A stretch of 21,854 bases of DNA from an uncultured Halobacteria archaeon (lineage in GTDB: Archaea > Halobacteriota > Syntropharchaeia > Alkanophagales > Methanospirareceae). The stretch is taken from assembly GCA_964443855.1 (NCBI GenBank), contig CAYUEX010000015.1, forward strand, positions 1 through 21,854, given 5' to 3'. The translations under genes and the position numbers were made by a program. The notes under the pieces are model-generated. The model searched no databases. It was not told the DNA's origin and saw only the letters and a program-made list of their open reading frames with translations. Below, piece after piece: positions 6,026 through 21,854 of this stretch (the first letter of the stretch is position 1; each line of letters begins with the position of its first letter).

Positions 6026-6319
6026 ATGAAAAAAGTGAAAGAAAAAGTCATCCTTTGGCACGATGCTCATGTAACGAAAAAACGACTCATTTCAGAACAC
6101 GAGAAAAGTGAACCGCTTTCATGGGCTTTTAAAAAGTCATATACGCGGTTAAAGGAACTCGTTGGCTTCACCGGTAAGAAGATACTGTATGATGCAGTCG
6201 ACCTCATCAAGGATAGTTCCAATGCACTCTTTCTGCTCAATCCTACATCCTTCTGCTATTTGGCCGTGCTCTGTGCCAATTGGATTGTCTTCTTTGTCAT
6301 GTATGAAAACCACAAATAG
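6026..6319 (+). CDS. Hypothetical protein, 97 aa; N-terminal paralog of the 6541 gene with a divergent hydrophobic C-terminus
   Basis: Shares M-K-KEK---D--V-K-RL-S------LS---KKSYT-LKE------K----D-V--IKD--NAL with the 6541..7038 product. The C-terminal 20 aa are hydrophobic and unrelated. RBS-like TAAGGGGGTG lies 12 nt upstream. Confidence 0.4.
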   Translation: MKKVKEKVILWHDAHVTKKRLISEHEKSEPLSWAFKKSYTRLKELVGFTGKKILYDAVDLIKDSSNALFLLNPTSFCYLAVLCANWIVFFVMYENHK

Positions 6320-6540
6320 CTGTAAGGGATGATAATTGCCCGAAATCCGTTTTTTGCAGCACGCTGTTGAGATTGCTTTTCCGGATGAATTAAAGCTGTT
6401 TCTCAATGCTTACTTTTGATGAAAGGTACAGTTTTTTTGTAATAGTTTAAATGTACGCCCCAAATTTTTGTAATAACTGTTAAAAGGATTGTGACCTTAA
6501 CCTATCCTTAGCAGAAAGGCGAAAGAGGTGAAACAAGAAT

Positions 6541-7038
6541 ATGGAAAAATTGAAGGAGAAAATACTTCCTGGTTACGACTATCGAGTGAAGAAGAACAGA
6601 CTAAATTCAGACCGTGCGGTACGAGATAAACTTTCACGTGAGTTGAAGAAGTCGTATACGACGTTGAAAGAGGTCAGTGACTTAGCCTATAAAGATGACA
6701 GGCGTGATGTGGTAGAGCATATCAAGGACCTTCTCAATGCACTCGATCTGTTCAGAGCTGAGATCGAGAATGCCTCTTATGGCTTATCGCCATTATTCAA
6801 GCAGGAAAAGGTCTCGGATGAGGCAGTGGATCGGATGGTGGCATTCGATAGCGCGCTTGTGGACGAATTAGAAGTAATAACGAAGGCAACGGACCTCGTG
6901 TATGACCATGTGCTCAAGGGCGAGACAGCGGACATTATTTTACAGGTACGAACAGTGAAGCGAAGCGTTGATAACTTAAAGAACGTCTTCTCGGACCGAG
7001 CGGACTTCTTGCAAAAGGATCCGACGGAGGGGGTGTAG
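6541..7038 (+). CDS. Hypothetical protein, 165 aa (paralog of the 6026 gene); first gene of a two-gene operon
   Basis: AGAGGTG RBS 10 nt upstream. The stop is 5 nt before the next ATG (7044), where GGAGGGGG acts as an internal RBS. No recognisable domain. Confidence 0.5.
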   Translation: MEKLKEKILPGYDYRVKKNRLNSDRAVRDKLSRELKKSYTTLKEVSDLAYKDDRRDVVEHIKDLLNALDLFRAEIENASYGLSPLFKQEKVSDEAVDRMVAFDSALVDELEVITKATDLVYDHVLKGETADIILQVRTVKRSVDNLKNVFSDRADFLQKDPTEGV

Positions 7039-7043
7039 CTCAA

Positions 7044-8261
7044 ATGAATAAAGAACCCACGTTTTTCAAGGATAGCGGTGCGATGGGCGATGTGCTGGGC
7101 GAAGCGCAGAAACTGATAGACGAAGCTAAAAAAGAGGCACAAGCGCTTGAAGAGGAGCTAAAAGCGCAGCAAGAGTCAGTTGACGAATACCGTGAGCAGG
7201 TTGAAAAGACACGATACCAACAGGTGATCAGGGAATTGATCGGTGAGGGTGTTGAAGATGTTAAAGGTGTTGTTGCAGGCATGGTGACTGAATGGAAGGA
7301 GAAAAAATTGCAGATGAAGCAGCGTGAAGACGAACTGACCATGCAGCAGCAAGCGCTTCTGGAACGGGAACAGAAACTCGAGGGCAGGATACAGGAATTT
7401 GAAACTGAGCAACAGGAACGTATGCGAGCCGAAATGCAGAACATCGCGCAACTATCAGCGAATGTGAAAGTGCAGATGGACGAGTTAGCGAAAACGAAGA
7501 ATACGATTGACCGCATTTTGACGGAAGACGAAGCGACGATACGAGATAAGGTGCTCACCGAAGAGGATGTCAAGTTCTTACGATTGAATTATTACTCCTT
7601 GCTGCAGTCACGGCTTGCGAATCAGGGTGTAATCAATCCATTAACGGGAGAGAGATACAGTACCGATGCCTGGAAGATAAGGACAACGAACGAGGAACTC
7701 ACCGCGAAAGTGACCAAAGGGGTACTCCCGAAACATACCGCTGTGGGATTCGAGGTTAAATTCATCGTGCCTGACGCTGAGGAAGGTTACATTTACCAGA
7801 AATTAGGAAAAGAGGTCGCTGACGTAATTACCGAGTTTATACAAACAGAAACGAAGGATACGAAAGCATTTGAAGCATTGGTGCTCGTGTCGCCCACCGG
7901 CTGGACTGACTGGGCTATTGAGAAGGTGGAAACAATCCTGAACATGACGAAGAGCGTGTATCTCGTTGATTTGAGCGAGCGAACGATATTCTCCAATGAA
8001 GGCGATAAGAAGACGAAACAGATTGCCGAGTGGTTCGTTCCCGTGCCAATAGAGGAGGAAATTGCTGCGATGGTTACCACGCTTACCAAAGAGATTGAGG
8101 AATCGGGCGCGCCGCAGTTCCGTGCTGATAAAGTGTGTGAGAAATATCAGGTCCCGCGCAGAATAGTGATGGGTGCCTTCAAGGACATGGTAGAAGAAGG
8201 GAAAGGAGAGCTTATCGCGCCGGAAGAAGGTGCGAAGGATAGTATATTGTTGGTGAGATGA
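7044..8261 (+). CDS. Coiled-coil protein with uncharacterised C-terminal globular domain, 405 aa
   Basis: Residues about 15-160 are heptad-like and E/K/Q-rich (EAKKEAQALEEELKAQQESVDEYREQVEK...EREQKLEGRIQEFETEQQERMRAEMQ). The C-terminal 240 aa are non-repetitive. Good RBS. Many long antisense ORFs in this region are low-complexity and rejected. Confidence 0.6.
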   Translation: MNKEPTFFKDSGAMGDVLGEAQKLIDEAKKEAQALEEELKAQQESVDEYREQVEKTRYQQVIRELIGEGVEDVKGVVAGMVTEWKEKKLQMKQREDELTMQQQALLEREQKLEGRIQEFETEQQERMRAEMQNIAQLSANVKVQMDELAKTKNTIDRILTEDEATIRDKVLTEEDVKFLRLNYYSLLQSRLANQGVINPLTGERYSTDAWKIRTTNEELTAKVTKGVLPKHTAVGFEVKFIVPDAEEGYIYQKLGKEVADVITEFIQTETKDTKAFEALVLVSPTGWTDWAIEKVETILNMTKSVYLVDLSERTIFSNEGDKKTKQIAEWFVPVPIEEEIAAMVTTLTKEIEESGAPQFRADKVCEKYQVPRRIVMGAFKDMVEEGKGELIAPEEGAKDSILLVR

Positions 8262-8456
8262 GCAGAAGGTTACCGTGATTAGGATCTTTAATCTGGCGTT
8301 GGAGAGGTAATGGGGCTCAAAGTAAAATACTGAATGCATCGTGAAGATCGTAAACTATATGGGGAATAATTGTCCCCATATTTATTCTCTTAAGGAAAAA
8401 AAAGAGCGGTAAAATGTTTGAAGCTACGTCGAATTTGAAAAGGGGAGGCGATATCG

Positions 8457-9992
8457 ATGGCTAAAACGAGTTTTGCCCTTGTAATTGTGGTAATACTCTT
8501 GGCAGTGATACCTATAGGTTTAGTTTATGTCACATCTCCAACGCCATCAGCACCAGCTCAAATAGCTCTACGAGCCCACAACTGGCAATATCTCTGCGCA
8601 GAGGGGGGAGGTGGTTGGGCAGTTACTGCCACCACAACTGCTGATGGCTATCTGTATACCCTTTCTGGTGGTCCTTCTCCAGAAACACCGCTCGTTGTTG
8701 ATGACGATTTAGAAGTATTAGTAAATGGAAAGACTGTTTTCCTCGATAATGATAATGTCTCTACGAGAGATGGTCGAACAATCTGGAATGGTGCTCCCAT
8801 AACCTTCGTTGCATCCTCTGGTGATGCACTCAGAATAAGAGCGACTAATCCCGGAGGAGTGGATAGTGAATTGTCACCATTGTATCTTCATGTGAATGCG
8901 CAGTTCGTAAAATTGAGTGACGGTGTGCCAAAGACACCCAGTGACGTTTTTGTATTCTTTGATGAAACTTTCAACATTTCAATACCTTCGGAGATAGCCA
9001 TTACCGCGCCGAAAGAAGGCCAGGAGATTACATGGTCTTCGGAGGGTTTTTTGGCTAAAGGGACTTGTTCCGGGTTGGGAGGAGGATTAAACATATATTT
9101 GATCGTTCATCCTCTGACAACTGACCAATGGCGGGTCCAGAATGCTCCTCATATAACCGAAGAAGGAACGTGGGAGGCGACCGTTTATTTTGGAACAAAA
9201 GATCTTGGAGCTGGCGAGGATTACGAGCTTTATGCCATAATAACCGAGAAAACCTTTGAAAAAGGATTAATCGAGAGTTTTCCACCTTATGTTGCGAAGT
9301 CTGCAGTACGAGTAAGGCGAATTGCTGTTTCGCCTCTTCTTCAACAAAAATGGTGCTATATTTTTATCACTGCTCTAATCATTCTACTGGTGGTACTTTT
9401 CGCTCATAGATCCAGAAAAAAGAGAGCAAAGTTATCGGAGAACGTTACGGGAACAACGGAGATGAAAAGCCCAAAATTTGAGATCAATATCACCACAGAT
9501 ACCGGATTTAAGGTTGGTATGTGGGAACAACTACATGTAACCGCTAAGAACGTCGGTAAAGGCAGTGCAAGGAATGTTTTGTTAACGCTTTCGGGCCCTT
9601 TAGAGATTGGCGGTGTGAAAACGATACCAACGCTTGACCCCAAAGCAAAAGCAGAGGTGACTGTGGGAATCAAACCCAAAGAACAGGGTAAACTACCTCT
9701 TGAGATTTGCGTAGCCTATACTGATGAAACGGGTAGAGCATCTAAAATCAAAGAAGTTAAATATATAAACGTCGCAAAGGATGATGAAAAGGTCTCAGAG
9801 CAACCAGTGACTATTCATATAGACAATATTGGCGAGATTATAGGTTCGGGAGCAACCAAGACCGGTGATATTGGGATATTGAAAGGCAGCATCGGTGCAA
9901 CCAATAAGCCTTCTAAAAAATGCCCGAATTGCGGAAAAGACGTATCTGGAGATGAAAAGTTCTGTCCGGAGTGTGGAGAGCAACTGAAATAA
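8457..9992 (+). CDS. Membrane protein: N-terminal signal-anchor, about 270-aa ectodomain, second TM, cytoplasmic CARDB-like beta-sandwich, C-terminal zinc ribbon; 511 aa (paralog family member 1, most divergent)
   Basis: GGGGAGG RBS 7 nt upstream. TM1 FALVIVVILLAVIPIGLVYV. TM2 WCYIFITALIILLVVLFAHRSRKKRAK (positive-inside). CARDB-like pattern LHVTAKNVGKGSARNVLLTLSGPLEIGG...LDPKAKAEVTVGIKP..GKLPLEICVAYTDETG. Ends KKCPNCGKDVSGDEKFCPECGEQLK. Confidence 0.7.
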   Translation: MAKTSFALVIVVILLAVIPIGLVYVTSPTPSAPAQIALRAHNWQYLCAEGGGGWAVTATTTADGYLYTLSGGPSPETPLVVDDDLEVLVNGKTVFLDNDNVSTRDGRTIWNGAPITFVASSGDALRIRATNPGGVDSELSPLYLHVNAQFVKLSDGVPKTPSDVFVFFDETFNISIPSEIAITAPKEGQEITWSSEGFLAKGTCSGLGGGLNIYLIVHPLTTDQWRVQNAPHITEEGTWEATVYFGTKDLGAGEDYELYAIITEKTFEKGLIESFPPYVAKSAVRVRRIAVSPLLQQKWCYIFITALIILLVVLFAHRSRKKRAKLSENVTGTTEMKSPKFEINITTDTGFKVGMWEQLHVTAKNVGKGSARNVLLTLSGPLEIGGVKTIPTLDPKAKAEVTVGIKPKEQGKLPLEICVAYTDETGRASKIKEVKYINVAKDDEKVSEQPVTIHIDNIGEIIGSGATKTGDIGILKGSIGATNKPSKKCPNCGKDVSGDEKFCPECGEQLK

Positions 9993-10218: not shown

Positions 10219-12342
10219 ATGGTTGACAAAACGTTGGATTCAAAAGGCACAGGAGTAAGGGCAATAGGCAAAACGCTGGCGGTGATTGTTTGTCTACTTC
10301 TTTTGTTCGGTATTGTGACCATGCCAGCCGCTGCGAAACTGGACGGCTGGCAATATCAGCGAAAGATTGGCATTACTGAGAATTCCGGGACAACCTTGGT
10401 GGATTATGAAGTGATGCTCGATTTATCAGGCAGTGACTTCCCCGTACATGCACAATCGGATGGTTCTGACCTGAAATTCGTGCTTGATGGCAAAGAGCTG
10501 AGTTACTGGCTTGAAGCGTTTAATCCAAAGACAAAGACGTGCAAGATTTGGATAAAAGTGCCGAAGCTACCGGCAAAGGATTCTGTTACCGTGATGATGT
10601 ATTCCGGGAATCCCGGTGCTTCTTCGCGAAGTAGTGGGGCTGCGACCTTTGAGTTCTTTGACGATTTTGAGGGCAAAGACCTTAATCCAAACATTTGGGC
10701 GCACGATGCGTCTGCAGGCGGATCGTATTTCGTTAGTGACAGTCATCTAGCACTCTATTGCGGTGGGAGTGACTGCAATTCCATTGTAAAGACAAAAACG
10801 GCAAAAGTTTTTGAGAAGGATAACGTGGCTATCGAGATGTACGGCTACGAAACGGATTATGGTTACGATAGCGATCACTGTACCAGATTCTCGTGTTCCG
10901 CACGAACGGCTAATTATGCACAAATGCCTTCAGGGTCGCCCTGCTATAGCTACATAACTACCTCGTTCCAACAAGACAAAGCTCCGTTACCGTTCAATGT
11001 GCGTCAAAAGCGGGGAATAATGCATCTCGGTACAGAGGGAACCCAGTTTTATACCGAGTTAGAAAACGGCATCAAGTATACCGATCGGACTCAATATTAC
11101 AATTCCGGAACTGAATGGGGCATTGAGTTTTATTGTTACCATGCTAAATTCTGGATAGACTGGGTACGAATCCGCAAATATACCGCTTCCGAACCCACCG
11201 TTGTCCAATCTCCTGATGTGTCCCTCATACCAACGACACCTGCGCCTTCTAATTCTACCCCACCACAGTATTTCATAGGCGGTGCCGCTGTTATTGTACT
11301 CCTACTCATCGCGGGTATCAGCATATCACGGAAGGGTAAGAGTAACGACTACTCAAAACCACAACCACCTCGTGAGCCAAGGCCAACAATGGAGCCCGTC
11401 ACACCAGAACCATCACGTGAATCTGCACCCATTGAACCAGTACCTCAAAGTGCTGTTTCAGTAGAAGAACGAACGGTTGCTACATCAAGTGCCGTGAACT
11501 ACCAGCGCACACTGATTCTGTACAAAGTCAAGGTAGAAAATAAGCTTTCAAAACCGATCAGCGATATCAAGGTAAAAGCATTTGTCCCCGACGTGTTCTT
11601 GACAAAAGAGGACGAGAAGACGATTGGGATGCTTGAGCCGGACAATGCACGTACCGTCACGTTTGAGATCAGACCAACAGGCGAATGTGGCGAGTGCAAC
11701 CTCTCCGGTAGAGTCACGTACTACAATCATCTCATTGACAAACGCGAGGAGATCGAAATTCCCGTGAAAGCCGTGAGCATAATCTGCCCGTTGTTAAAAG
11801 CGCGAGAGATAAGCGAAGACGCGTGGAGAACGTTAAACAGCAGTTTAATCGAGGCGAGTGAGAACACAAAGGAAGAGATTCCGATCGCAGCTAAGAGTTT
11901 GTTTAACATGGTCACGGACATCGTGAAGGACTTGAATCTTTACCTGGTGAGTGAGAGTGTTACGGAAGATGACAGTTTCTTCAGAGGCGTTGCACGGTTC
12001 TACGGCGAGGGTGTTAAAGAGTTGAAGTATGCGGCACAGATCGAGGCGATTGGGGGACCGAAGAAGTCGCAACTGATCCTGAATTCGTGGGCCGAGCGTG
12101 AGGATGCACTCACGGGATTTTACTACAAGATACTTGATGAGATTGAGAAGCGAATACGTATTAAGGACCACATAAATGACAGCATTGTTCAACAGTTCTA
12201 TCACATAGGAACGGTCGTCAAGGATAGTGTGGTGCAGCGTTCGACGATTGGTGTCGGTACCGATACGAAGTGCCCAAAATGTATGCATGAGATATCGGAA
12301 GAAGAGAAATTCTGTCCAAATTGCGGAGAGCAATTGAAATAG
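10219..12342 (+). CDS. Receptor-like membrane protein: signal peptide, DUF2341 + concanavalin/LamG-like ectodomain, TM, Pro-rich linker, conserved cytoplasmic module, C-terminal zinc ribbon; 707 aa (family member 2)
   Basis: Ectodomain LDGWQYQRKIGITENSG...CKIWIKVPKLPAKDSVTVMMYSGNP is DUF2341-like, followed by FEFFDDFEGKDLNPNIWAHD (concanavalin-like). TM YFIGGAAVIVLLLIAGISI, then RKGKSNDYSKPQPPREPRP. Conserved module with ICPLLKAREI and KDSVVQRSTIG. Ends KCPKCMHEISEEEKFCPNCGEQLK. Confidence 0.8.
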   Translation: MVDKTLDSKGTGVRAIGKTLAVIVCLLLLFGIVTMPAAAKLDGWQYQRKIGITENSGTTLVDYEVMLDLSGSDFPVHAQSDGSDLKFVLDGKELSYWLEAFNPKTKTCKIWIKVPKLPAKDSVTVMMYSGNPGASSRSSGAATFEFFDDFEGKDLNPNIWAHDASAGGSYFVSDSHLALYCGGSDCNSIVKTKTAKVFEKDNVAIEMYGYETDYGYDSDHCTRFSCSARTANYAQMPSGSPCYSYITTSFQQDKAPLPFNVRQKRGIMHLGTEGTQFYTELENGIKYTDRTQYYNSGTEWGIEFYCYHAKFWIDWVRIRKYTASEPTVVQSPDVSLIPTTPAPSNSTPPQYFIGGAAVIVLLLIAGISISRKGKSNDYSKPQPPREPRPTMEPVTPEPSRESAPIEPVPQSAVSVEERTVATSSAVNYQRTLILYKVKVENKLSKPISDIKVKAFVPDVFLTKEDEKTIGMLEPDNARTVTFEIRPTGECGECNLSGRVTYYNHLIDKREEIEIPVKAVSIICPLLKAREISEDAWRTLNSSLIEASENTKEEIPIAAKSLFNMVTDIVKDLNLYLVSESVTEDDSFFRGVARFYGEGVKELKYAAQIEAIGGPKKSQLILNSWAEREDALTGFYYKILDEIEKRIRIKDHINDSIVQQFYHIGTVVKDSVVQRSTIGVGTDTKCPKCMHEISEEEKFCPNCGEQLK

Positions 12343-12348
12343 CTATTA

Positions 12349-12384
12349 CATTACAGTTATTCCGTAACAAGCATTATTATAGAG
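12349..12384 (+). repeat. Conserved 36-nt 3' element, copy A (CATTACAGTTATTCCGTAACAAGCATTATTATAGAG), 7 nt after the 10219-gene stop
   Basis: Aligns with copies at 15441-15476 and 16896-16931. Shared core CATTAC-N8/9-CGTAACAA(G/C)C-ATAA-ACAGA. Confidence 0.45.
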
Positions 12385-12521
12385 CCCGCTCTTGTTAATT
12401 CTAGTGGCTGCGATGGAAAGTGCCAAATACTATGATATACGAAAGATCGATAGTTAATGGTGACGCAGTACATGAGACGTGAAGCAATAAATTTAAAGGA
12501 GAGGTGCTGAAAGTGCTGAAA

Positions 12522-13712
12522 ATGCGTAAAATAATGTTTGTGGCTGTGCTTGTTTTAGCCTGTTTACTAATGCTACCTGCCTCTGCCGTAGGGTACATCA
12601 TCGGCGCTGCTGTACTAGCACTTATCCTAGTCGCTGGTATTGGCATAACACGGAAGGGAAAGAGTGGTGCTCAAACAAAACCACAACCACCTGCTCCGCC
12701 ACAATCCAAGCCAGATCAAAAATCAATCTCTCCTTCGCCACCTGCATCTGCCGCCAAACCTACCCAACTACCACCAGCAATCGAAATAAAACGAGGCTAC
12801 GAAGTATTGCCAAACAATGACCTCAGATTTGGCATCCGCATCAAAAATGACACTGAATTCTTGATTGCTGATGTGGAAACCAAACTCGACCTTCCAAAAA
12901 CACTATTTACGCTAAAAGGGGATTCAGTGCAATCACTTGCCAATATTCACCCGAACGGCGAACGAACTGCAACGTACGTACTGACACCACGTGGCTGTAT
13001 CCACAACGAAGATATAGAAGCGACTGCCTTCTACCGAGATCACACCGGCAAAAAACAAACCATACAGATGCGCCCCAAAGAAGTGCATTGCGTTTGCCCA
13101 TTCCTCAAGGGAAAAGCGATGCGTGAAGGTGAATTCGCTGAACTCGCAGATAGAGGTGAATATATTCAGGAAGGGCTCTCCTTTAGCGGCATCAGCGTCA
13201 ATAAGATTGCTGAGTTCATCAAAGAGTCCTGTGCACACCGGCTTTATGTTATTAGCGAGCATGACATTGGTACCGCGAGAATCGTTAATCTTGCGGGCGA
13301 ATCACTAGGAGAGAAAGCATATTATCTCCTCACTGCGGTCATTCAGCCACATAACAACGTTACTCATGTTGCACTTCGTGCCTATTCGGACAAGCCTTAC
13401 GGGCTGCACGGTTTTTTGAACGAGATTGCTAACAGCATACGGCATCTCGTGAGTTCTGTCCAATCGGCGAAAGAAATCGGCATCATCGAGAGTAAGCAGG
13501 TAATCACTATCATTGACTCGGTTGTGCAGAGAACGAGTTTCGGCGGGACTGGTGAAGGACCAGGTGCACCAGGTATCACTATTGAAGGTAGTGTGGTGCA
13601 ACGTTCTGCGATTGGTGACAGTGCAGATAATGGCAAAAAATGTTCTCATTGTGGAAAAGGTATGTCTGAAGATGAACGGTTTTGCCCAAATTGCGGAACG
13701 CAAATGAAATAA
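12522..13712 (+). CDS. Membrane zinc-ribbon protein, family member 3 (signal peptide + TM with essentially no ectodomain, conserved cytoplasmic module, zinc ribbon); about 396 aa
   Basis: I chose ATG 12522 (MRKIMFVAVLVLACLLMLPASA is an ideal signal peptide). In-frame GTG codons at 12504/12513 are alternative starts (the ORF track used 12504), and AAGGAGAGG at 12495-12503 fits GTG 12513 best. TM YIIGAAVLALILVAGIGI, then TRKGKSGAQTKPQPPAPPQ. Beta-sandwich region, CPFLKGKAM, duplicated DSVVQRTSFG / GSVVQRSAIG. Ends KKCSHCGKGMSEDERFCPNCGTQMK. Confidence 0.65.
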   Translation: MRKIMFVAVLVLACLLMLPASAVGYIIGAAVLALILVAGIGITRKGKSGAQTKPQPPAPPQSKPDQKSISPSPPASAAKPTQLPPAIEIKRGYEVLPNNDLRFGIRIKNDTEFLIADVETKLDLPKTLFTLKGDSVQSLANIHPNGERTATYVLTPRGCIHNEDIEATAFYRDHTGKKQTIQMRPKEVHCVCPFLKGKAMREGEFAELADRGEYIQEGLSFSGISVNKIAEFIKESCAHRLYVISEHDIGTARIVNLAGESLGEKAYYLLTAVIQPHNNVTHVALRAYSDKPYGLHGFLNEIANSIRHLVSSVQSAKEIGIIESKQVITIIDSVVQRTSFGGTGEGPGAPGITIEGSVVQRSAIGDSADNGKKCSHCGKGMSEDERFCPNCGTQMK

Positions 13713-13746
13713 AAGATAAGAAATGAAGTAGTACTGGCATAAAAAA

Positions 13747-15435
13747 ATGAAACTAAAAAAATTCGGGACGGCCATCCTGATAGGGTTGCTTCTTTTTGGC
13801 GCACTGGGATTTGGGGTAGGGCAGGTCACGGCAACCGAAGCCGTAGATTATGATGCGTTAATTTGGTATTTGCCTGATGCTCCCGACGGGTGGGTAGAAG
13901 AGGAACCTGATGGGATGACGTTTAACATCGACGACGGTACGTGGAGCGTGGCAACGTTAGGTTATTCAAACTATGATGATGATCTCGTGTTCGTGACCGT
14001 TGGGATTATGGACTCGGCATACTATACGGTCGGCTGGTGGGAAATGTGGGATGAACTGTACGCGTATGATGATGTGGGTGGCTATGCAGAACCTGTAACC
14101 GTCAACGGCTATCCAGCATGGGAGGTGTATTCAGCGGACTGGAATGAGTATAGCCTTTTTATTAGCATCGATGGAAGGTTCATGGTTAATATTCACACCG
14201 ACAGCGATTGGTACACACTCGACGAATTTGCCAACGCGATCGATTATGAGGGTATCGCGGAATTAGGTGAAGAAGTCCCGACGTACATATCCCCCGACCT
14301 CACTGAAGAGCCATTTGAACCTTACTACCCCCTAGAACCAACACCGACGCCCCCCGATCCTGGACCGTTCCTTTCCTTTATCCCCGTTATTGCACTCATC
14401 ATTATTTTTATCGTTGCCCGATCGTGGAGGAAGGGAGGTAGATCTGCAAAACCACAACCACCTACACAACCGCAGCCACCTACTGAACCGCCAAAACCAA
14501 TGCCCGAACCGCTGCCCAAACCGGAACCTGTCATTGAACCTGTATCCACCCCACAAGAACCTAATATAACCATTACCTCTGCGTTTGGCTACAAAGGTGC
14601 AACGATCATTCATAAAATTAAAGTTGAGAACCATGCATCGGAGACGGTGGGCGATATTAAAATCCGCCTATTCGTGCCTGAGGTGTTCCTGCTCAAGGAT
14701 CAGGAGAAACAGATTGGACTGCTCAAATCAGGGGAATCTAAGACCGTTACGTTTGATATCAGACCAACGGGCGAATGCGGCGATTGTGAAGTTTCTGGCA
14801 GAGCGACCTATTATGACTATGCAAGTAGGAAGACAAGGGAAGTAGATATACCTGCCAAATCGCTCAGTATCGTCTGCCCTATGCTAAAAGCTCAGAAGAT
14901 TGACAAACAGGCATGGAAAGATACCGTGATGCGCCTCATCCAGGCAGAGGAGAGCACAAAGGAGATTGAAATCCCGGCCGAGACGCTGTTTACCATGGCG
15001 TCGCGAGTGATCGAAGATCTGAACATGTTTCTGTTAGAACCTGAAGTTACGTCCACAGCGCAGTTGTTTAATGGCGTCGCGCGATTTTTTGCGAAAGGTG
15101 TGAGAGAACTCACGTATGCGGCCCAGATCGAGGTCGTGGGTGGCACAAAGAAATCAAAACTCATACTGCGCGTATGGGCGGAGAAGGAAGAGGCTTTAAC
15201 CGGGTTTTATCATGGGATCCTCGACGAGATCGAGAAACGCGTGCAGGTCAAGGGGTACATTGATGACAGTCTTGTGCAGCAATATTATCAGGTCGGAACG
15301 CTGGTCAAGGACAGTGTCGTGCAGCGGTCTAAAATTGGTGCCGAAGGCGAAGCGGGTAAAAAGTGTCCTCGGTGCGGTAACGCGGTATCTAAAGATGAAC
15401 GATTCTGTCCGAAATGCGGTGAGAAGTTACAATGA
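13747..15435 (+). CDS. Receptor-like membrane protein, family member 4: signal peptide, acidic Trp/Tyr-rich ectodomain, TM, Pro-rich linker, conserved cytoplasmic module, zinc ribbon; 562 aa
   Basis: Signal MKLKKFGTAILIGLLLFGALGFGVGQVTATEA. Ectodomain rich in D/E/W/Y. TM FLSFIPVIALIIIFIVA, then RSWRKGGRSAKPQPPTQPQPP. Conserved module from ITITSAFGYKG with CPMLKAQKIDK and KDSVVQRSKIG. Ends KKCPRCGNAVSKDERFCPKCGEKLQ. Only 34 bp downstream of member 3, so probably co-transcribed. Confidence 0.8.
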   Translation: MKLKKFGTAILIGLLLFGALGFGVGQVTATEAVDYDALIWYLPDAPDGWVEEEPDGMTFNIDDGTWSVATLGYSNYDDDLVFVTVGIMDSAYYTVGWWEMWDELYAYDDVGGYAEPVTVNGYPAWEVYSADWNEYSLFISIDGRFMVNIHTDSDWYTLDEFANAIDYEGIAELGEEVPTYISPDLTEEPFEPYYPLEPTPTPPDPGPFLSFIPVIALIIIFIVARSWRKGGRSAKPQPPTQPQPPTEPPKPMPEPLPKPEPVIEPVSTPQEPNITITSAFGYKGATIIHKIKVENHASETVGDIKIRLFVPEVFLLKDQEKQIGLLKSGESKTVTFDIRPTGECGDCEVSGRATYYDYASRKTREVDIPAKSLSIVCPMLKAQKIDKQAWKDTVMRLIQAEESTKEIEIPAETLFTMASRVIEDLNMFLLEPEVTSTAQLFNGVARFFAKGVRELTYAAQIEVVGGTKKSKLILRVWAEKEEALTGFYHGILDEIEKRVQVKGYIDDSLVQQYYQVGTLVKDSVVQRSKIGAEGEAGKKCPRCGNAVSKDERFCPKCGEKLQ

Positions 15436-15440
15436 CTCTT

Positions 15441-15476
15441 CATTACACGTTTAGCGTAACAAGCATAATAACAGAC
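15441..15476 (+). repeat. Conserved 36-nt 3' element, copy B (CATTACACGTTTAGCGTAACAAGCATAATAACAGAC), 5 nt after the 13747-gene stop
   Basis: Aligned with copies A and C; see copy A. Confidence 0.45.
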
Positions 15477-15552
15477 AATTTTGTCATTACTAACGGAACG
15501 GGGTGTGAGAGAGGAGGAACCCAAAACGGAATAGGGAAGAGGAGTGGTAACA

Positions 15553-16890
15553 ATGCCGAAGTCGCAGCGTATTAGGACGTTTGTTTCTGAACAAATTAGG
15601 GTACTGAGATTCATATTTACTGAGGGTAAAGTCCCCAAATGGCTACGAGTTTACGCAGTTTTTTGGAGCTTTTGGGCATTTTTGTGTATTCCGGCTTGTT
15701 TAGAGTTAATGGTAGAGAATTTTATAGAGGGTATTTTGGTCTTCCATATTCTTGTTGGGATGCCGTACATTCCCATTTACTACTGGGCGAATAGGCACTC
15801 GGTTCTGGAGAAACTCTCTGAACAGGAAGCAGAAACGACCATCACACGGTTAGATCAACTCAATGATCGGGGCAGTGAACTCAAAAAAGCACGAACGTCT
15901 GCTGAACCTCAAGGCTCTGCACACCCACAACCTCATGTGGAACTTCCAAAGCCTACGATAAAACCGCCTACCGCGCCCGAACCGAGCCGTGAACCTGCAC
16001 CGGTTGTCCAAGAATCGGGTATTCAGATTACGTCTGCTTTTGGCTACAAAGGGGCAAGTATTATCCATAAAGTGAGCGTGGCAAATCCGACGGAAGAGAC
16101 CGTGGGCGATATTAACCTCCACCTGTTCGTGCCAGAGGTGTTCCTGCTCAAGGACACGGAGAAACACATTGGATTGCTGAAGCCCGGTGAATCGAAGACG
16201 GTTACCTTTGATATCAGACCGACGGGCGAATGCGGCGATTGTGAGGTTTCTGGCAGAGCGACTTATTATGACTATGCGAGCAAGAAGACGAAAGAGGTAG
16301 ATATTCCCACCAAATCGCTCAGCATCGTCTGCCCTATGCTTAAAGCTCAGAAGATCGACAAGTCCGTGTGGAAGGATTCGGTTACTCAACTCATCCAGGC
16401 GGAGGAGAGCACAACGGAGATTGAGATCCCGGCTGAGACCCTGTTTACCATGATCTCTCGCGTGATCGAAGATATGAATATGTTTATGCTTGAACCTGAG
16501 GTTACGTCCACGCCGCAGTTGTTTAATGGCGTCGCGCGATTCTCTGCGACAGGCGTCAAAGCGCTTACCTATGCTGCTCAGATAGAGGTCGTCGGCGGTG
16601 CGAAGAAATCGAAACTCATACTCAAGGCATGGGCCGAGAAAGAAGAGGCGCTCACCGGATTTTATCATGGAATCCTTGACGAACTCGATAAACGGGTTCA
16701 TGTTAAGGGCTATATTGACGATAGCATAGTGCACCAGTTTTACCAGGTCGGGACGCTGGTCAAGGACAGTGTGTTACAGCGTTCAACTATTGGTGCTGAA
16801 GATAAAGCGGGTAAAAAATGCCCTCGTTGTGGACGAGCAGTTTCAGAGGATGAACGGTATTGTCCGGAATGTGGTGAGCGACTACAATAA
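15553..16890 (+). CDS. Membrane zinc-ribbon protein, family member 5: no signal peptide or ectodomain, N-terminal 2-TM hairpin, Pro-rich linker, conserved cytoplasmic module, zinc ribbon; about 445 aa
   Basis: I prefer ATG 15553 (GAGGAG 10 nt upstream); the ORF track starts at in-frame GTG 15544. The 3' half (16030-16887) is about 80-85% identical at nucleotide level to 14575-15432 of member 4 (for example the shared run agaccgacgggcgaatgcggcgattgtga). Ends KKCPRCGRAVSEDERYCPECGERLQ. Confidence 0.75.
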   Translation: MPKSQRIRTFVSEQIRVLRFIFTEGKVPKWLRVYAVFWSFWAFLCIPACLELMVENFIEGILVFHILVGMPYIPIYYWANRHSVLEKLSEQEAETTITRLDQLNDRGSELKKARTSAEPQGSAHPQPHVELPKPTIKPPTAPEPSREPAPVVQESGIQITSAFGYKGASIIHKVSVANPTEETVGDINLHLFVPEVFLLKDTEKHIGLLKPGESKTVTFDIRPTGECGDCEVSGRATYYDYASKKTKEVDIPTKSLSIVCPMLKAQKIDKSVWKDSVTQLIQAEESTTEIEIPAETLFTMISRVIEDMNMFMLEPEVTSTPQLFNGVARFSATGVKALTYAAQIEVVGGAKKSKLILKAWAEKEEALTGFYHGILDELDKRVHVKGYIDDSIVHQFYQVGTLVKDSVLQRSTIGAEDKAGKKCPRCGRAVSEDERYCPECGERLQ

Positions 16891-16895
16891 CAATT

Positions 16896-16931
16896 CATTA
16901 CAGTTTTACCGTAACAACCGTTATAAACAGA
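16896..16931 (+). repeat. Conserved 36-nt 3' element, copy C (CATTACAGTTTTACCGTAACAACCGTTATAAACAGA), 5 nt after the 15544-gene stop
   Basis: Aligned with copies A and B. Contains the near-palindrome TTACCGTAA. Confidence 0.45.
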
Positions 16932-17004
16932 CGGACTTTAGATAAACACAGAAATGGCATCTGTACATGCTTTTAAAGAAGGTAAAAAAGAGAGGTAAAA
17001 AAAA

Positions 17005-18903
17005 ATGTTTGGCAAAATAAAGTGCAGTAATTGTGGAGCAGTGAACGATAAAAAGAGTACGTTCTGCTTACAGTGTGGAAGCCCTTTGTCTGGGACAACA
17101 TGTAGTAGCTGCGGCAAGCCATTGGGTCAGAATGTTGACTTCTGCCCGCACTGCGGTGCACGTATCAGTGACGTTGCAGAACGCCGGGGTGACGTGACAC
17201 CGGTTGTGGAAGAGAAGGGTAAAGTAAGGGTGTGGCAACGGAACCCGAACGACTTTGCACGGCGATTCGAGGTCAGTGACATCAAAGGATTGTTCAGCAA
17301 GAAGATAACCGTTATGTCCGGCACAAAAGCACTCTTTTTACAAGGCGGGCGATTTTCCGGGGACTTACCTCCCGGGACGTACACCGTTGGCGGCCTTACC
17401 CAGGCGATAAAAACTCTGAATCTCGCAGAAAAGGCGACCGTAATCCTGGTTGATGACGCGGATGTTGGGCTTGACTTCAGCATCGGCGGCTTGCGAACAA
17501 AGGAGAACTTTGATGCTGGTGTGAAAGGGCGGATCGTGGTGAATACCGAGGAGCCGATACTCCTTTTCAACAATCTCATGAAAGGTCGGGAACACGTAGA
17601 GGCAACCGAGCTTGAAGCTCTGCTGCGGAACGAGATGCTGAATGTACTGCAATCGAAGCTCCAGCAGTATTCGTTCGAGGAGTTGTACGGCAATCTCGAC
17701 TTGAAGAAAGAGCTCGAACAGGACTTTGAACACCAGTTGAGCACAACCTTGAGTCGCGTTGGTCTAAAACTCGTCCACATGCCCTATTTTGATTATGATG
17801 AAAGCTACTGGAAGGATTTGATTGAAAAAGGAGCTAGGATTGACAAAGAAGGAGCGAAGCTCGGGTTAGAGGAGCAAGAGGAAGGTCTTGAGGATAAGCG
17901 ACTCGGACTCACGAAGCGGATGCGAGCACGGCTCACGGATGATACGATGAATGAATTCCGGAATGCCGAGGATTTGGAGAAGTTTGTGTACGAGCTCGAT
18001 AAGGATAAAGTCATCCGCGATAACGAGATGATCGAGCTCAAACAGATATTTGATGAGAATCACGAGGATCGAGCGTTTGCACGCGATATGATGCTCAAAC
18101 GAGTGGAACAGCGGCATGAGCTGGATATGGACGCCGAACGTGCCGAACACGAACGAGAGAAGAAGATAAAGGACGCTGAAGCAAGAATCAGTATAGAAGA
18201 AAAGGAAGATGAAGCAGATGCACGAGCCGCACGCGAGGGAATCGATATACTCAACAAAATGCGAGCGGCAAAGCGTGAGGATGCCGCGGGTATTCAAGCG
18301 CTTGAGCTGGAGAAGCTGCAGAAAGAGGCAGAGCTTGAAGTGGAACGGTTAAAAGCGCGATCTGCGGCAACGGACGAAGCGCTCATTTCTATGGCTGAAG
18401 GCAGACAGGCAGAGCAGCTCGGTGAACTAGCACGAATGAAGGCGGCAACGGGTCTTACCGAGGAGCAGATACTCGCACTTGGCGCAAAGGATAGCGCAGC
18501 AGTTGCGGATGCGTTCAAAGAGAAATACAAATCGATGAGCACCGAGCAAATAATGAAAATGTACGAAGATCGACTGGGGGATAAGGATAACCTCGCACAG
18601 GTGATCCAGGAGATATCGGACAAAGGTGGCGATCGTATGGAGCGTATGGCTGCCAAAGCGCTTGAGCAGATGGGTATCACGGCCTCCACGCGAGCGCAAG
18701 GTGCAGCACCCGGAGGCACCACCGTTGTTACTGGCGGTGGCGGAGGTATGCAGCCCGTCGTGATCGGTGGCGCTCCCCAAGCAGCATCAGCACCTCCTCC
18801 AGACGTGAAGAAGGTCGTTATCTGTCCCGAATGCAATGCTGAACTGCCCGTCGGCACGAAGTTCTGCACCAATTGCGGTGTACAAATAGGCAGGAAGGAG
18901 TGA
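17005..18903 (+). CDS. SPFH (band-7, PF13421/COG4260-like) domain protein with N-terminal double zinc ribbon, long central coiled-coil, Gly-rich segment and C-terminal zinc ribbon; 632 aa
   Basis: N-terminus KCSNCGAVNDKKSTFCLQCGSPL..CSSCGKPLGQNVDFCPHCGARI. SPFH-like core VRVWQRNPNDFARRFEVSDIKGLFSKKITVMSGTKALFLQGGRFSGDLPPGTYTVGG. Residues about 280-480 are E/K/R-rich coiled-coil. C-terminus VICPECNAELPVGTKFCTNCGVQIG. AGAGGT RBS 8 nt upstream. Confidence 0.72.
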   Translation: MFGKIKCSNCGAVNDKKSTFCLQCGSPLSGTTCSSCGKPLGQNVDFCPHCGARISDVAERRGDVTPVVEEKGKVRVWQRNPNDFARRFEVSDIKGLFSKKITVMSGTKALFLQGGRFSGDLPPGTYTVGGLTQAIKTLNLAEKATVILVDDADVGLDFSIGGLRTKENFDAGVKGRIVVNTEEPILLFNNLMKGREHVEATELEALLRNEMLNVLQSKLQQYSFEELYGNLDLKKELEQDFEHQLSTTLSRVGLKLVHMPYFDYDESYWKDLIEKGARIDKEGAKLGLEEQEEGLEDKRLGLTKRMRARLTDDTMNEFRNAEDLEKFVYELDKDKVIRDNEMIELKQIFDENHEDRAFARDMMLKRVEQRHELDMDAERAEHEREKKIKDAEARISIEEKEDEADARAAREGIDILNKMRAAKREDAAGIQALELEKLQKEAELEVERLKARSAATDEALISMAEGRQAEQLGELARMKAATGLTEEQILALGAKDSAAVADAFKEKYKSMSTEQIMKMYEDRLGDKDNLAQVIQEISDKGGDRMERMAAKALEQMGITASTRAQGAAPGGTTVVTGGGGGMQPVVIGGAPQAASAPPPDVKKVVICPECNAELPVGTKFCTNCGVQIGRKE

Positions 18904-18921: not shown

Positions 18922-18997
18922 GGGTACGGAGCAGATAACGTAACCTATCGTACTGTTTTGCCGTACCTACCCTAAAAGTGGAGACGATCGAAAATCG
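18922..18997 (+). terminator. Possible terminator region downstream of the SPFH gene (inverted repeats plus oligo-T)
   Basis: ggtacgg (18922-18928) / ccgtacc (18960-18966) enclose an oligo-T (ctgttttg, about 18951-18958). A second small hairpin ACGATCGAAAATCGT is at about 18983-18997. Confidence 0.25.
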
Positions 18998-19109
18998 TAA
19001 ATCATATAAAAAAGATCGGCCTTTGCAATTTTGCGTATAGTAACGCAGGGGAGGGGAAGGAAAATGGTTGGAAATAAATTAAAATTAGCGGGAGAAAGGG
19101 GTGGTAGCG

Positions 19110-20849
19110 ATGCGTAAAAGTTTGATCGTTAGAATAGCAATCGTAATCGTGTTTTTAGGGTTAGGATTAGCTACGACTGCACAGGCGCAGAGCGATGCAG
19201 GACTTGTCGCTGAATGGCACTTTGATGAAGGTTCTGGAAACATATTAAAGGATAGCTCAGGAAACGGGAATGATGGAACCATTTACGGTGCCACGTGGAC
19301 AACGGGCATTTCGGGGAAGGCGTTGAGTTTTGACGGAGTGGATGATTATGTTGACTTAGGGAATGCATTAAACTTTGGAACTAGTGATTTTAGCGTAGAA
19401 GCTTGGATTAAAGTAGAAGGTGATAGTATTAAATCGTATCAGACCATTATCTCTGATGACTATGGCCCGTGGACTTTGTATTCTTTCGAGGTCAGAGAAT
19501 CAGATGGTCATCCTTTTATAGTGCTACGCGATAATGAAAAAGACGGTTTAGTTTCAGAAGGTTCTGTTTCTCTAAGAGATAACAAATTACACCATATTGT
19601 CGCTGTAAGAGATGGAACTAGGGCCTATTTATATGTAGATGGTAGTTTCGTTGACTCGGACGAAAATGAAAATCTTGGAGCAATTGATAGTGGACATAAT
19701 GATTGGATAGGTTATAAACCCGATAATAACGGCGCTTTCAACGGCATCATTGACGAAATCCGCATTTACAACCGCGCTTTGAGTGCTGAGGAAATAAAAG
19801 CGCATTACGATGCTTTAACAGGATCTGCACCAGCAGCGCCTCCAATGCAAAAACCAACCGTTTCGACAGTGAGCGATGAAGGACTCTTGGCTGAATGGCA
19901 TTTCGACGAAGGTTCTGCTACTGTTCTGAGGGACAGCTCAGGCTATGGAAATGATGGTACCATTCACGGCGCAACGTGGACAACGGGTATTTCGGGGACG
20001 GCGTTGCAGTTTGATGGGGTGAATGACCATGTAGTAGTACCAGAGAGTCCTCTTTGGGATTTTAGAACTGGTGATTTCACAGTAAGTTTTTGGTTTATGA
20101 AGTTAAATACTGCTAGAGGATGGGCTTTTTCTTTTGGTTCAGGGCTTCAAAATAATCTATGCTTTGATTTTGACGACCCGGATGCAGGGGGTTGGGGTGC
20201 ATGGGTCTATTGGATGAGTGGTGGCGCACCCCATGTGCGGACAAAAAACACCTATTACGATGGTAATTGGCATTATCTTTCATTTACCAGAACAGGAAAT
20301 ATTTTTGAGTTGTATATTGACGGTAATCCTATTGCTCAAACCGCAGATTCCAGCGATATCGAAATAATCGGAGACGTATATATTGGAGCATTTCCCGGAG
20401 GGAGCGGATATTTGGGAGCCAGCTATGTGGGGGGTTATTTCAAAGGCCTCATCGACGAAGTCCGCATCTACAACCGTGCTCTCTCTGCCAGTGAAATAAA
20501 AGCGCAGTACGAAACTCCTGGAGCATCCGCTCCCGCGTCAACGGTAACGCCAACACCCACTTCTGCCATATCTTATCCGTCTACCGTCGAAGCACCCACG
20601 GCAACCCCAAGCGCTGAAGCGCAAGCACGAAATAGCCGGTTAATGCTTTATGGCCTCATCGGCGCTATCGGCGTCGTCGGTATCGTAATCGCCGTGAAGG
20701 TCGGTGGTAACGTAGCCTCGAAAGCACGGGTGAAAAAGGATGAGAAAATGCGGGAGCAACAAGAACGGGAGGAATACGAGCGGAAAATCAAGGAGTGGGA
20801 GGATCAAGGTTATGTCGTTTCTGAAATGAAGGAGGAGCTGAAGAAATGA
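19110..20849 (+). CDS. Surface-anchored protein with two LamG_3 (concanavalin A-like lectin) domains, Thr/Pro/Ser linker, C-terminal TM and charged cytoplasmic tail; about 579 aa
   Basis: I chose ATG 19110 (MRKSLIVRIAIVIVFLGLGLATTAQAQS signal; GGAGAAAGGGGTGG RBS). The ORF track uses GTG 19101. Each LamG_3 domain starts LVAEWHFDEGSG..L(K/R)DSSG(N/Y)GNDGTI(Y/H)GATWTTGISG and ends IDE(I/V)RIYNRALSA(E/S)EIKA(H/Q)Y. TM LMLYGLIGAIGVVGIVIAVKV. The stop overlaps the next ATG (ATGA at 20846-20849). Confidence 0.8.
   Translation: MRKSLIVRIAIVIVFLGLGLATTAQAQSDAGLVAEWHFDEGSGNILKDSSGNGNDGTIYGATWTTGISGKALSFDGVDDYVDLGNALNFGTSDFSVEAWIKVEGDSIKSYQTIISDDYGPWTLYSFEVRESDGHPFIVLRDNEKDGLVSEGSVSLRDNKLHHIVAVRDGTRAYLYVDGSFVDSDENENLGAIDSGHNDWIGYKPDNNGAFNGIIDEIRIYNRALSAEEIKAHYDALTGSAPAAPPMQKPTVSTVSDEGLLAEWHFDEGSATVLRDSSGYGNDGTIHGATWTTGISGTALQFDGVNDHVVVPESPLWDFRTGDFTVSFWFMKLNTARGWAFSFGSGLQNNLCFDFDDPDAGGWGAWVYWMSGGAPHVRTKNTYYDGNWHYLSFTRTGNIFELYIDGNPIAQTADSSDIEIIGDVYIGAFPGGSGYLGASYVGGYFKGLIDEVRIYNRALSASEIKAQYETPGASAPASTVTPTPTSAISYPSTVEAPTATPSAEAQARNSRLMLYGLIGAIGVVGIVIAVKVGGNVASKARVKKDEKMREQQEREEYERKIKEWEDQGYVVSEMKEELKK
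19173..19355 (+). repeat. 183-bp nucleotide repeat (signal-peptide end + LamG_3 domain start), copy 1; copy 2 at 20942-21124
   Basis: acgactgcacaggcgcagagcgatgc(a/c)ggacttgt(c/g)gctgaatggcac...gttgagttttga(c/t)gg is shared at about 85% identity and in identical register in the two adjacent genes. Confidence 0.6.
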
Positions 20850-21854
20850 AGCTGCATATTGTAGTTCCGCATTGGGGGGATAAAGTCAAAGCAGTCTTAG
20901 GAATAATACTTGTCATTTCGTTTTTGGGGCGCGGGTTTGTTACGACTGCACAGGCGCAGAGCGATGCCGGACTTGTGGCTGAATGGCACTTCGACGAGGG
21001 TTCTGGAACTATTTTGAGGGATAGTTCGGGCAATGGCAATGATGGAATGATTCGTGGTGCGACATGGACAACCGGGATTTCGGGAAAGGCGTTGAGTTTT
21101 GATGGGAAGGATGATTGTGTTGAAGCGCCCCTCACCGAATCTTTAACGGATGATCTGTCAGTCGAATTCTGGATGAGGAATAGTGTCATACTCTCAGATC
21201 AGACGCGGATTGTCGATTTAGGAAGATCTTCAAGCACGGGGTTTCAGCTCTGCGAGTGGAAAGACGGCTCAATAATCGTTGATAATACCGGTGGTCCCGC
21301 TGCAAATGTCAAAACGCAGGAGCCATACAATGATGGATACTGGCATCATGTGGTTGGAGTGAGGAAAGGAAATGAGTACCGGCTGTATGTTGATGGCATC
21401 TATGTCAATTCGATAACCGGAACGATTCCTTTGTATGATTATGTTTTCATTGGTAAGCGGGCTCCCATCGGGGATTTGTGTTTCTTTGATGGATTTATTG
21501 ATGAAATTCGCATCTACAACCGTGCTTTGAGTTCTGGCGAAATAAAAGCGCATTACGATGCTTTTACTGCACCCTCCGTTCCGTCAACGGTAACGTCAAC
21601 GTCCACACCAACTCCTGTACCTTCAGTGAGTGACGCTAACCTTGTTGCCGAATGGCACTTTGACGAAGGTTCAGGAACTATTCTGAGAGATAGCTCAGGC
21701 AATGGCAACGACGGAACGATTCATGGCGCAACGTGGACAACCGGTATTTCAGGGAAGGCGTTGAGCTTTGACGGAAAGGATGATTATATAGACTGCGGTA
21801 ATGATGCGAGTTTGGATATTACTGACGAGATTACGATTGAGGCGTGGGTGAAAA
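20846..21854 (+). CDS. Second LamG_3-repeat surface protein (paralog of 19110..20849); 3' end truncated by the window
   Basis: Not in the ORF track because there is no stop before the window end. My translation from ATG 20846 is open to 21854: MKLHIVVPHWGDKVKAVLGIILVISFLGRGFVTTAQAQSDAGLVAEWHFDEGSGTILRDSSGNGNDG...IDEIRIYNRALSSGEIKAHYDAF...LVAEWHFDEGSGTILRDSSGNGNDGTIHGATWTTGISGKALSFDG. It includes two LamG_3 starts. Confidence 0.7.
   Translation, partial: MKLHIVVPHWGDKVKAVLGIILVISFLGRGFVTTAQAQSDAGLVAEWHFDEGSGTILRDSSGNGNDGMIRGATWTTGISGKALSFDGKDDCVEAPLTESLTDDLSVEFWMRNSVILSDQTRIVDLGRSSSTGFQLCEWKDGSIIVDNTGGPAANVKTQEPYNDGYWHHVVGVRKGNEYRLYVDGIYVNSITGTIPLYDYVFIGKRAPIGDLCFFDGFIDEIRIYNRALSSGEIKAHYDAFTAPSVPSTVTSTSTPTPVPSVSDANLVAEWHFDEGSGTILRDSSGNGNDGTIHGATWTTGISGKALSFDGKDDYIDCGNDASLDITDEITIEAWVK

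Follow-up and report, generated by a model that had tools for sequence, protein, structure and literature searches.

Archaeal activators usually bind just upstream of the TFB recognition element (BRE) and recruit the basal factors TBP and TFB to suboptimal promoters, as described for EarA, Ptr2, TrmBL1, and the ara-box; the sites of archaeal repressors usually overlap or follow the BRE/TATA (PMC5512572, PMC4158304). Deviation of the TATA box and BRE from consensus is typical of activator-dependent promoters (PMC5512572). In the Thermococcales, the TrmB-family Thermococcales glycolytic motif (TGM; TATCAC-N5-GTGATA) mediates activation when it lies upstream of the BRE/TATA and repression when it lies downstream, and its regulon extends over several operons (PMC4158304). 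Here, we describe a 36-nucleotide (nt) element that occurs three times in a 21,854-nt stretch of DNA (contig CAYUEX010000015.1, all of which was analyzed and which we refer to as the window). The source of the window is an uncultured archaeon related to the Methanosarcinales.

The element shares several properties with EarA sites (Methanococcus maripaludis fla promoter), the Ptr2 upstream activating sequence (Methanocaldococcus jannaschii), and the Sulfolobus ara-box. Like these, it is a short motif directly upstream of a putative BRE/TATA that is off consensus, and it is repeated at the predicted promoters of functionally linked genes. EarA sites, however, consist of four 6-bp boxes, whereas the window element is built on a 19-bp dyad, RTTAC-N9-GTAAY, whose right arm is fused to a TATA-adjacent box. 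Unlike those three systems, the window element is known from sequence alone. With the TGM it has in common a palindromic candidate operator at several operons, but the TGM has 6-bp arms, a 5-nt spacer, and a role in sugar metabolism, whereas the window dyad has 5-bp arms, a 9-nt T-rich spacer, and an adaptin/SPFH/Vps4-type locus. In addition, TrmB sites are found on either side of the BRE, while all sites of the window motif lie upstream of it or abut it. A literature search for TTAC-N9-GTAA-type motifs found no paper describing one. We regard the motif as new; a promoter with an upstream operator is of a known, ordinary kind.

The three copies lie on the + strand at 12349-12384 (copy A), 15441-15476 (copy B), and 16896-16931 (copy C), beside a tandem array of five + strand genes (m1 to m5), each of whose products has a C-terminal zinc ribbon. 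Copy A starts 6 nt after the stop codon of m2 (12340-12342), and copies B and C each start 5 nt after the stop codons of m4 (15433-15435) and m5 (16888-16890), respectively; the 3' flanks of m1 and m3 contain no element. The original prediction had placed three copies 5 to 7 nt behind m2, m4, and m5 and none behind m1 and m3, and its coordinates, gaps, and absences all proved correct. The pattern CATTAC-N8-CGTAACAA has three exact + strand matches in the window (12349, 15441, and 16896), whereas 100 shuffles that preserved dinucleotides gave an expectation of 0.15 (pattern CATTACN8CGTAACAA). When up to 2 mismatches were allowed, the window had four matches, a number that none of the 100 shuffles reached. 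The original prediction suggested that these copies are a functional 3' element. The element is indeed under selection, but it appears to belong to the downstream gene, since its right half with a TATA-like box recurs at promoter positions of genes without an upstream array member. It is probably a core promoter with an abutting transcription factor (TF) operator for the gene that follows, a combination shared by the units of a 'Meth_adaptin'-type locus.

Eight copies were compared, three from the window and five from relatives (obtained by a genome scan and a metagenome scan), and their alignment gave the consensus [C/G]ATTACAG-kTTT-nnn-[C/T]GTAACAA-[C/G]C-RWTATAA-(a/g)CAGAC. The element thus consists of an imperfect dyad, RTTAC-N9-GTAAY, with a T-rich center, and a box with a TATA-like octamer, GTAACAA-SC-RWTATAA; the left half of the element pairs, as a dyad, with the GTAAC of the right half. 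The dyad consensus is RTTAC-wGnWTTyCY-GTAAY, in which the TTAC and GTAA cores are invariant. In copy A, the dyad ATTAC-AGTTATTCC-GTAAC (12350-12368) is followed by AAGC and the TATA-like ATTATTATAG (12373-12382), and in copy C, the dyad ATTAC-AGTTTTACC-GTAAC (16897-16915) is followed by AACC and GTTATAAAC (16920-16928). Copy B has the dyad ATTAC-ACGTTTAGC-GTAAC (15442-15460), AAGC, and a degenerate TATA-like sequence, ATAATAACA (15465-15473). Each copy contains an A/T-rich, TATA-like octamer (ATTATTAT, ATAATAAC, and GTTATAAA in copies A to C), which reads RTTATAA(A/G) in relatives and at the promoter of the p165 gene described below. Scored with a position weight matrix (PWM) trained on nonwindow sites only, copies A and C reached 24.2 and 24.1 bits; copy B, with 17.4 bits and a double change (G>C / C>G) at dyad positions 7/13, is the weakest.

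The conservation across paralogs noted in the original prediction also exceeds neutral expectation. Mean identity among the eight copies is 0.76 over the 37-nt element and 0.37 over the next 37 nt; the four-fold synonymous sites of the upstream genes, compared over their last 240 codons, are saturated, with an identity of 0.33. Given the difference between 0.76 and 0.33, the element is under purifying selection and is not a passive remnant of duplication. Furthermore, it travels with the downstream gene. We compared two copies from related loci (designated by L numbers) that both precede an SPFH gene, one (L002-8261) behind a 769-amino-acid (aa) CARDB-type zinc-ribbon protein and the other (L067-1897) behind a 547-aa m4-like protein. 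Over the last 240 residues, identity between the two upstream proteins is 25%, but it is 97% between the elements and 92% between the stretches of 37 nt behind them. The element of copy C likewise precedes the SPFH orthologs of L002/L070/L076 and L067, with the start codon +108 to +115 nt away, and the orthologous position of copy A is conserved in L002/L076 and L059. Of 23 tabulated sites, every one with an assigned gene start is followed by a same-strand gene. The upstream neighbors vary and include several zinc-ribbon subfamilies, DUF1294, OMPdecase-like, PIN, and PemK genes, and a divergent gene, so that in relatives the element is also found behind zinc-ribbon genes of other subfamilies or behind non-zinc-ribbon genes. 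The 19 exact RTTAC-N9-GTAAY matches counted below lie between genes, except where they overlap spurious open reading frames (ORFs). A same-strand gene downstream, together with recurrence regardless of the gene upstream, is the pattern expected of a core promoter, and an operator would be expected to leave several copies at the predicted promoters of linked functions, with more conservation between species than neutrality allows.

The exact pattern of the original prediction had no match in 49 related genome loci, and a relaxed pattern was found only in L002; the full element is thus confined to a narrow clade. When metagenomes were scanned with a degenerate pattern of 30 nt, 21 matches were obtained, 16 of which, about the number expected, are chance matches in unrelated low-GC or gut contigs. 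The other five are in related archaeal contigs, and all of them lie right behind the stop codon of a zinc-ribbon gene and before a same-strand gene. When all fetched loci were searched with the eight-copy profile by nhmmer, only half-copies, CGTAACAACyGTTATAAAG, were found besides the known copies. These turned out to be p165 promoters, in which the box starts 60-74 nt before the p165 start and no zinc-ribbon gene lies in front. The check that the original prediction had proposed, a regex search in relatives for whether the motif always follows the array gene family, was thus run, and the answer is yes for the full 36-nt form, which is found behind zinc-ribbon genes, and no for its halves.

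The p165 box and TATA-like sequence without the left arm, about 55-70 nt upstream of the gene in at least seven related contig lineages, are present in the window, L002/L064/L076, L059, L073, L074/75/82/83, L078/79, L085, and L045 of the ANME-2c archaeon 'Methanogaster'. In all relatives examined for one (L059, L064/L076, L073, L074/75/82/83, L078/79, and L085), a separate dyad stands 25-26 nt before the p165 box, and six lineages have +116 to +118 nt between this dyad and the start of p165. The L073 dyad and box occupy a divergent intergenic region, where the upstream gene is on the opposite strand and the site is therefore in no gene's 3' untranslated region (UTR).

The window itself contains two further copies of the dyad part, neither of which adjoins an array member. 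The dyad at 5909-5927 (+ strand), GTTAC-TGATTTTCT-GTAAC, is 24 nt before the box of a 97-aa gene. It is perfectly palindromic, matches on both strands, has an orthologous site in L085 (at 847), and with 26.1 bits is the PWM maximum of the window. The proximal box and TATA-like sequence of that gene (5952-5971, +), CTGTAAAAGC-TCTTATAAGG, correspond to CTGTAACAGCTCTTATAAGG in the same place in L085 and would form the core promoter of the 97-aa gene, a p165 paralog. The second dyad (6425-6443, +), GGTAC-AGTTTTTTT-GTAAT, is 26 nt before the p165 box and is degenerate, such that it misses the exact dyad pattern and was recovered by the PWM (20.6 bits); L085 shares its degenerate left arm (GGTAC-GATTTTTCC-GTAAT). 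The proximal box and TATA-like sequence at 6470-6487 (+), GTAATAAC-T-GTTAAAAG (written whole, GTAATAACTGTTAAAAGG), would be the core promoter of the p165-p405 operon. Two layouts can thus be distinguished. In the fused layout, found at internal positions of the cluster (copies A to C), the right arm of the dyad is the box. In the separated layout, which the cluster has before its first genes (5909/5952 and 6425/6470), a lone GTAAC-AAC box and TATA are preceded at 24-26 nt by a full dyad, so that about three helical turns separate the two GTAAC half-sites. The separated layout also occurs in L078 before an operon of a 202-aa gene and a Vps4-like AAA gene, and the fused layout occurs in L067, L073, and L084 before a small 'MDSE..' ORF, behind a PIN-like or PemK gene.

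The dyad is enriched over chance. RTTAC-N9-GTAAC has 5 matches at 4 loci in the window (5909 being counted on both strands) against 0.06 expected, and RTTAC-N9-GTAAY occurs 19 times in 113 kb of nonredundant contigs of the motif-bearing clade, against 0.28 in shuffles, and only 2 times in 670 kb of other Methanosarcinales loci. The five window dyads score 17.4-26.1 bits with the PWM; the best scores in shuffles have a median of 9.5 bits and a 95th percentile of 14.5 bits, and the single highest is 21.1 bits. TTAC and GTAA are complementary in 21-23 of the 23 sites at the four positions, with a constant 9-nt spacer. The spacer, which the search did not fix, is strongly patterned: of the 23 sites, 20 have T at positions 10 and 11, 15 have C at 13, and 14 have G at 7. 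In all five window dyads, the T-rich strand of the spacer is the sense strand of the downstream + strand gene, which is why each of them scores higher on the + strand.

Collectively, these features suggest how the element might work. The octamer R-W-TATAA would be the TATA box, with the BRE region in the A-rich sequence that precedes it, and the dyad may be the operator of a sequence-specific TF that is probably dimeric. A protein-binding site was among the three candidates of the original prediction, and it is the reading we favor, as an operator of the downstream gene and not as a 3' element of the upstream paralog. If the octamer is the TATA box, then the dyad of the fused layout would abut the BRE/TATA at about -55 to -37. 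On the promoter reading, it is only because the intergenic spacers are short that the element adjoins the upstream stop codon. Since the dyad lies directly upstream of the putative BRE, by analogy with the systems above we weakly favor activation as the mode of action. On this basis, copy A would be the promoter/operator of m3 and m4 as a single operon (12504-15435), copy B the promoter of m5, and copy C that of the SPFH/zinc-ribbon gene. In Methanolobus psychrophilus, transcription starts about 19-22 nt downstream of the promoter, leaderless transcripts make up 16%, and 5' UTRs have a median length of 55 nt (PMC5378194). When start sites in the window were placed by the same distance, the predicted 5' UTRs are about 100 nt for m3-m4, about 58 nt for m5, about 56 nt for the SPFH gene, and about 35 nt for each of the two type I promoters (97-aa gene and p165). 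For the small ORF of L067 (L067b), the ATG is 36 nt after the GTAAC, and a near-leaderless transcript is predicted; in L057, a Shine-Dalgarno sequence and ATG follow about 30-45 nt behind the octamer, with a predicted leader of <20 nt. Overall, the predicted 5' UTRs range from about 5 to about 100 nt, which is inside the Methanolobus psychrophilus range.

Several points weigh against a promoter with an operator. The octamer of copy B, ATAATAAC, is a poor TATA match. The stretch at the BRE position, (A)ACAA[C/G]C, is A-rich with C/G at its last two positions and matches published BRE consensus sequences only in part. For methanogens, no BRE consensus has been reported (PMC5512572). The dyad arms were partly fixed by the search pattern, and since most sites were found by that pattern, their arm positions are set by ascertainment, so that freedom from bias is limited to the spacer, the box, and the spacing. 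The half-sites are 14 bp apart, center to center, which is unusual for a simple homodimer, and a symmetric dimer would not require the spacer to be directional. A regulator gene was sought in the neighborhoods of the loci, and none was consistently present there. Promoter activity and the positions of start sites are deduced from sequence patterns, and every fused-type copy in the window is also just behind a stop codon, where the TTT(T) of its spacer may add a minor role in ending the upstream transcript.

This last point bears on the possibility that the element is a 3' element of the upstream zinc-ribbon genes, whose U-rich sequence terminates transcription or signals the processing or stability of the RNA, possibly beside a promoter role. 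The three window copies and the five related metagenome copies start 5-10 nt behind a stop codon, and the dyad spacer has TTT or TTTT in most copies; according to Term-seq work in Methanosarcina mazei, to which PMC7237163 refers, archaeal terminators are reportedly U-tracts that do not need a hairpin. The element resembles such terminators in being T-rich and a few nt behind the stop but differs in that it contains no run of 5 or more T (the longest run is 4, and copy A has only TT-A-TT), also occurs away from gene ends, and goes with the gene downstream. The copies likewise have no GC-rich hairpin followed by a T run, and none of the 4 terminator-like sites in 12000-17300 is at a copy. The same T-rich spacer is seen in dyads behind no gene end, such as the one in the divergent L073 region, and the element tracks the downstream gene where the upstream gene differs. 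Thus, a terminator or processing signal, as the original prediction had offered, is distinctly improbable. A scan of the same interval for bacterial-type promoters and terminators gave nothing meaningful at the copies, and a sigma-70-like match overlapping copy B is irrelevant in an archaeon. We also rejected stop-codon recoding involving pyrrolysine (Pyl) because the stop codons before the copies are a mixture of TAG, TGA, and TAA. Even less support exists for a structured RNA, that is, UUACAG...CYGUAA as a hairpin in a 3' UTR or 5' leader or as a small RNA. The dyad could pair over 4-6 bp, and position 7/13 is complementary in 14 of 23 sites and shows some double changes (GC 8, GU 3, AU 2, CG 1, and UA 1), including the G>C / C>G of copy B. 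Pair 6/14, on the other hand, is unpaired in 16 of 21 sites, and the four core pairs are invariant and therefore carry no covariation information. The comparison of RNA folds that had been proposed as a check showed that the fold energies of five copies are at shuffle level (z of -0.18 to -0.85, with one copy at +0.36) and that their minimum-energy structures differ. An Rfam scan of the whole window matched no family. In the separated layout, moreover, the dyad is upstream of the TATA box and therefore would not be transcribed from that promoter. We consider an RNA role very unlikely.

The copies could instead be a neutral remnant or boundary of the duplications that built the array, or, as the original prediction had also proposed, a site of recombination by which the duplicated unit is delimited. 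The recent duplicates m4 and m5 both carry the element, and the similarity of their flanks falls after about 37 nt; since the synonymous identity of m4 and m5 is only 0.47, however, this loss of similarity is uninformative about a boundary. Synonymous identity among the paralogs is 0.33-0.47, which is saturated or nearly so, but the element is 0.65-0.89 identical between nonorthologous copies. It is also found at orthologous, single-copy positions in several other species and at the promoters of genes that were never in an array. The copies do not flank mobile or duplicated units with a recombinase in the manner of an attC-like site: the window contains no recombinase, and no integrase or repeat structure flanks the array units. 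Such an origin is the least credible of the alternatives. The remaining alternative accepts a promoter but dispenses with a dedicated regulator: the GTAACAAC box and TATA would be an extended BRE/TATA read by basal factors, for example by one TFB paralog, and the upstream dyad would be a second, weaker copy or a structural (bending) element. Consistent with this, the GTAACAAC box keeps both its sequence and its position relative to the TATA-like octamer at all sites, and other promoters in the window have a related CGTAAA and TATA (8350-8370 and about 18995-19015). Against it, the dyad is conserved as strongly as the box, its distance is fixed at 24-26 nt, and it is symmetric with invariant TTAC/GTAA; such features are not known to be required by basal factors. 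The motif is also restricted to one gene cluster within the sequence available. Basal factors acting without a dedicated regulator are thus unlikely, and a core promoter with an abutting operator remains the reading that we prefer.

The genes that the element would serve form a + strand cluster. For the array proteins, the nearest homologs come from Methanosarcinaceae, Methanoperedens, and 'Halobacteria archaeon' metagenome-assembled genomes, with identities of 65-67% or less. The conserved first operon of the cluster is p165 (6541-7038) and p405 (7044-8261), and it is preceded by the 97-aa gene (6026-6319), a truncated p165 paralog (44% identity) that has its own duplicated dyad and box promoter. 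The array follows, with m1 at 8457-9992, m2 at 10219-12342, m3 at 12504-13712, m4 at 13747-15435, beginning 34 nt after m3, and m5 at 15553-16890 (445 aa counted from the ATG at 15553). The m2 product is a 707-aa protein with DUF2341, an adaptin-appendage-like region, and a zinc ribbon, and copy A is next downstream of its gene. Downstream of copy C is the gene for an SPFH/Band-7 protein with zinc ribbons at both the N and the C terminus (17005-18903). In L073, L078, and L084, p165, p405, and SPFH make up a single tight operon; in the lineage of the window, p405 and SPFH are separated by adaptin-like genes, and a fused-type promoter of its own precedes SPFH. The p165/p405 pair is widespread, with 114 p165 homologs in Methanosarcinales, Methanoperedens, and Methanoregula. 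p165 matches no Pfam family. Its predicted structure is a helical bundle (predicted local distance difference test score, or pLDDT, of 89), which has no PDB match at an E value of <=0.001, and a likeness to ESCRT-III could not be shown. In relatives, a Vps4-like AAA ATPase adjoins p165 or the 202-aa gene. A scan of the window for tRNA and tmRNA genes found none.

Several other observations were made at these loci. L085 has the same pair of p165 and 97-aa genes with their promoters, and in L080/L081, p165 is directly behind a Vps4-like AAA ATPase gene. The m4 and m5 proteins are 82-85% identical over the compared C-terminal region, and the part that they share is limited to the C-terminal ~290 aa (82% identity); the N-terminal ~150 aa of m5 are unrelated to m4 and do not have the signal-peptide-like start of the other members (15553-16010 versus 13747-14560); m5, which has the weakest promoter copy (B), may be a decaying or neofunctionalized duplicate. 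The likely m1 promoter at 8345-8370, ATCGTAAACTATATGG, has a related CGTAAA and TATA without a dyad, and suggests that CGTAA(A/C) beside a TATA may be a more general promoter feature in the source organism. Before a LamG gene (19101), a dyad-like sequence at 18949-18967, CGTAC-TGTTTTGCC-GTACC, lies 29 nt before CGTAAATCATATAAAAAA (about 18995-19015). Its PWM score is 10.0 bits, which is background level, and we did not count it as a sixth window dyad, though the dyad and box architecture might be present there in decayed or variant form. The LamG gene opens a second tandem family (19101-21854): its 582-aa product has two LamG/concanavalin-like repeats, each starting with AEWHFDEGSG, and an open frame from about 20960 carries the LamG-type module at least twice more. 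In L070, a perfectly palindromic dyad at 997-1015, GTTACATTATTCACGTAAC, is followed by ATTTTTTATAAC and adjoins an m4-like gene fragment on the opposite strand relative to the cluster. The MDSE ORFs (2266-2499 on the - strand of L067, and ~9168 in L073 and ~8709 in L084, both on the + strand) encode a small conserved protein, of 77 aa in L067, with a Gly/Ala-rich hydrophobic C-terminal half. Their transcripts are apparently near-leaderless, and they may be members of the same regulon; the window showed no copy of the ORF.

The gene content of the cluster, namely, SPFH with zinc ribbons and, in relatives, the Vps4-like AAA ATPase, matches the 'Meth_adaptin' ESCRT-type neighborhoods that Makarova et al. 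(2024) described by comparative genomics only (PMC10936438). It is possible, though we hold this tentatively, that the dyad and GTAACAAC box are the cis-regulatory code of a dedicated regulator that coordinates a euryarchaeal 'Meth_adaptin'-type, ESCRT-associated system. Its regulon would comprise p165-p405(-SPFH), the adaptin-appendage/zinc-ribbon cargo-adaptor paralogs, a small membrane protein, and the 202-aa and Vps4-like operon. A membrane-tethered autoregulation, in which the dyad would be recognized by the membrane proteins' own zinc-ribbon tails, is a speculative idea to which we assign hardly any weight. For the annotation of compact archaeal arrays, our results suggest that a conserved sequence hugging a stop codon should be tested first as the promoter of the next gene. 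The value of the motif lies in the genes that it would control: it ties the adaptin/SPFH/Vps4-type transcription units together, predicts their operon structure, and would allow the regulon to be computed given a complete genome of the clade. If the dyad and box are indeed such a code, then the motif would also be a handle for the regulator, by DNA-affinity capture, and for the conditions that switch on an archaeal membrane-remodeling system.

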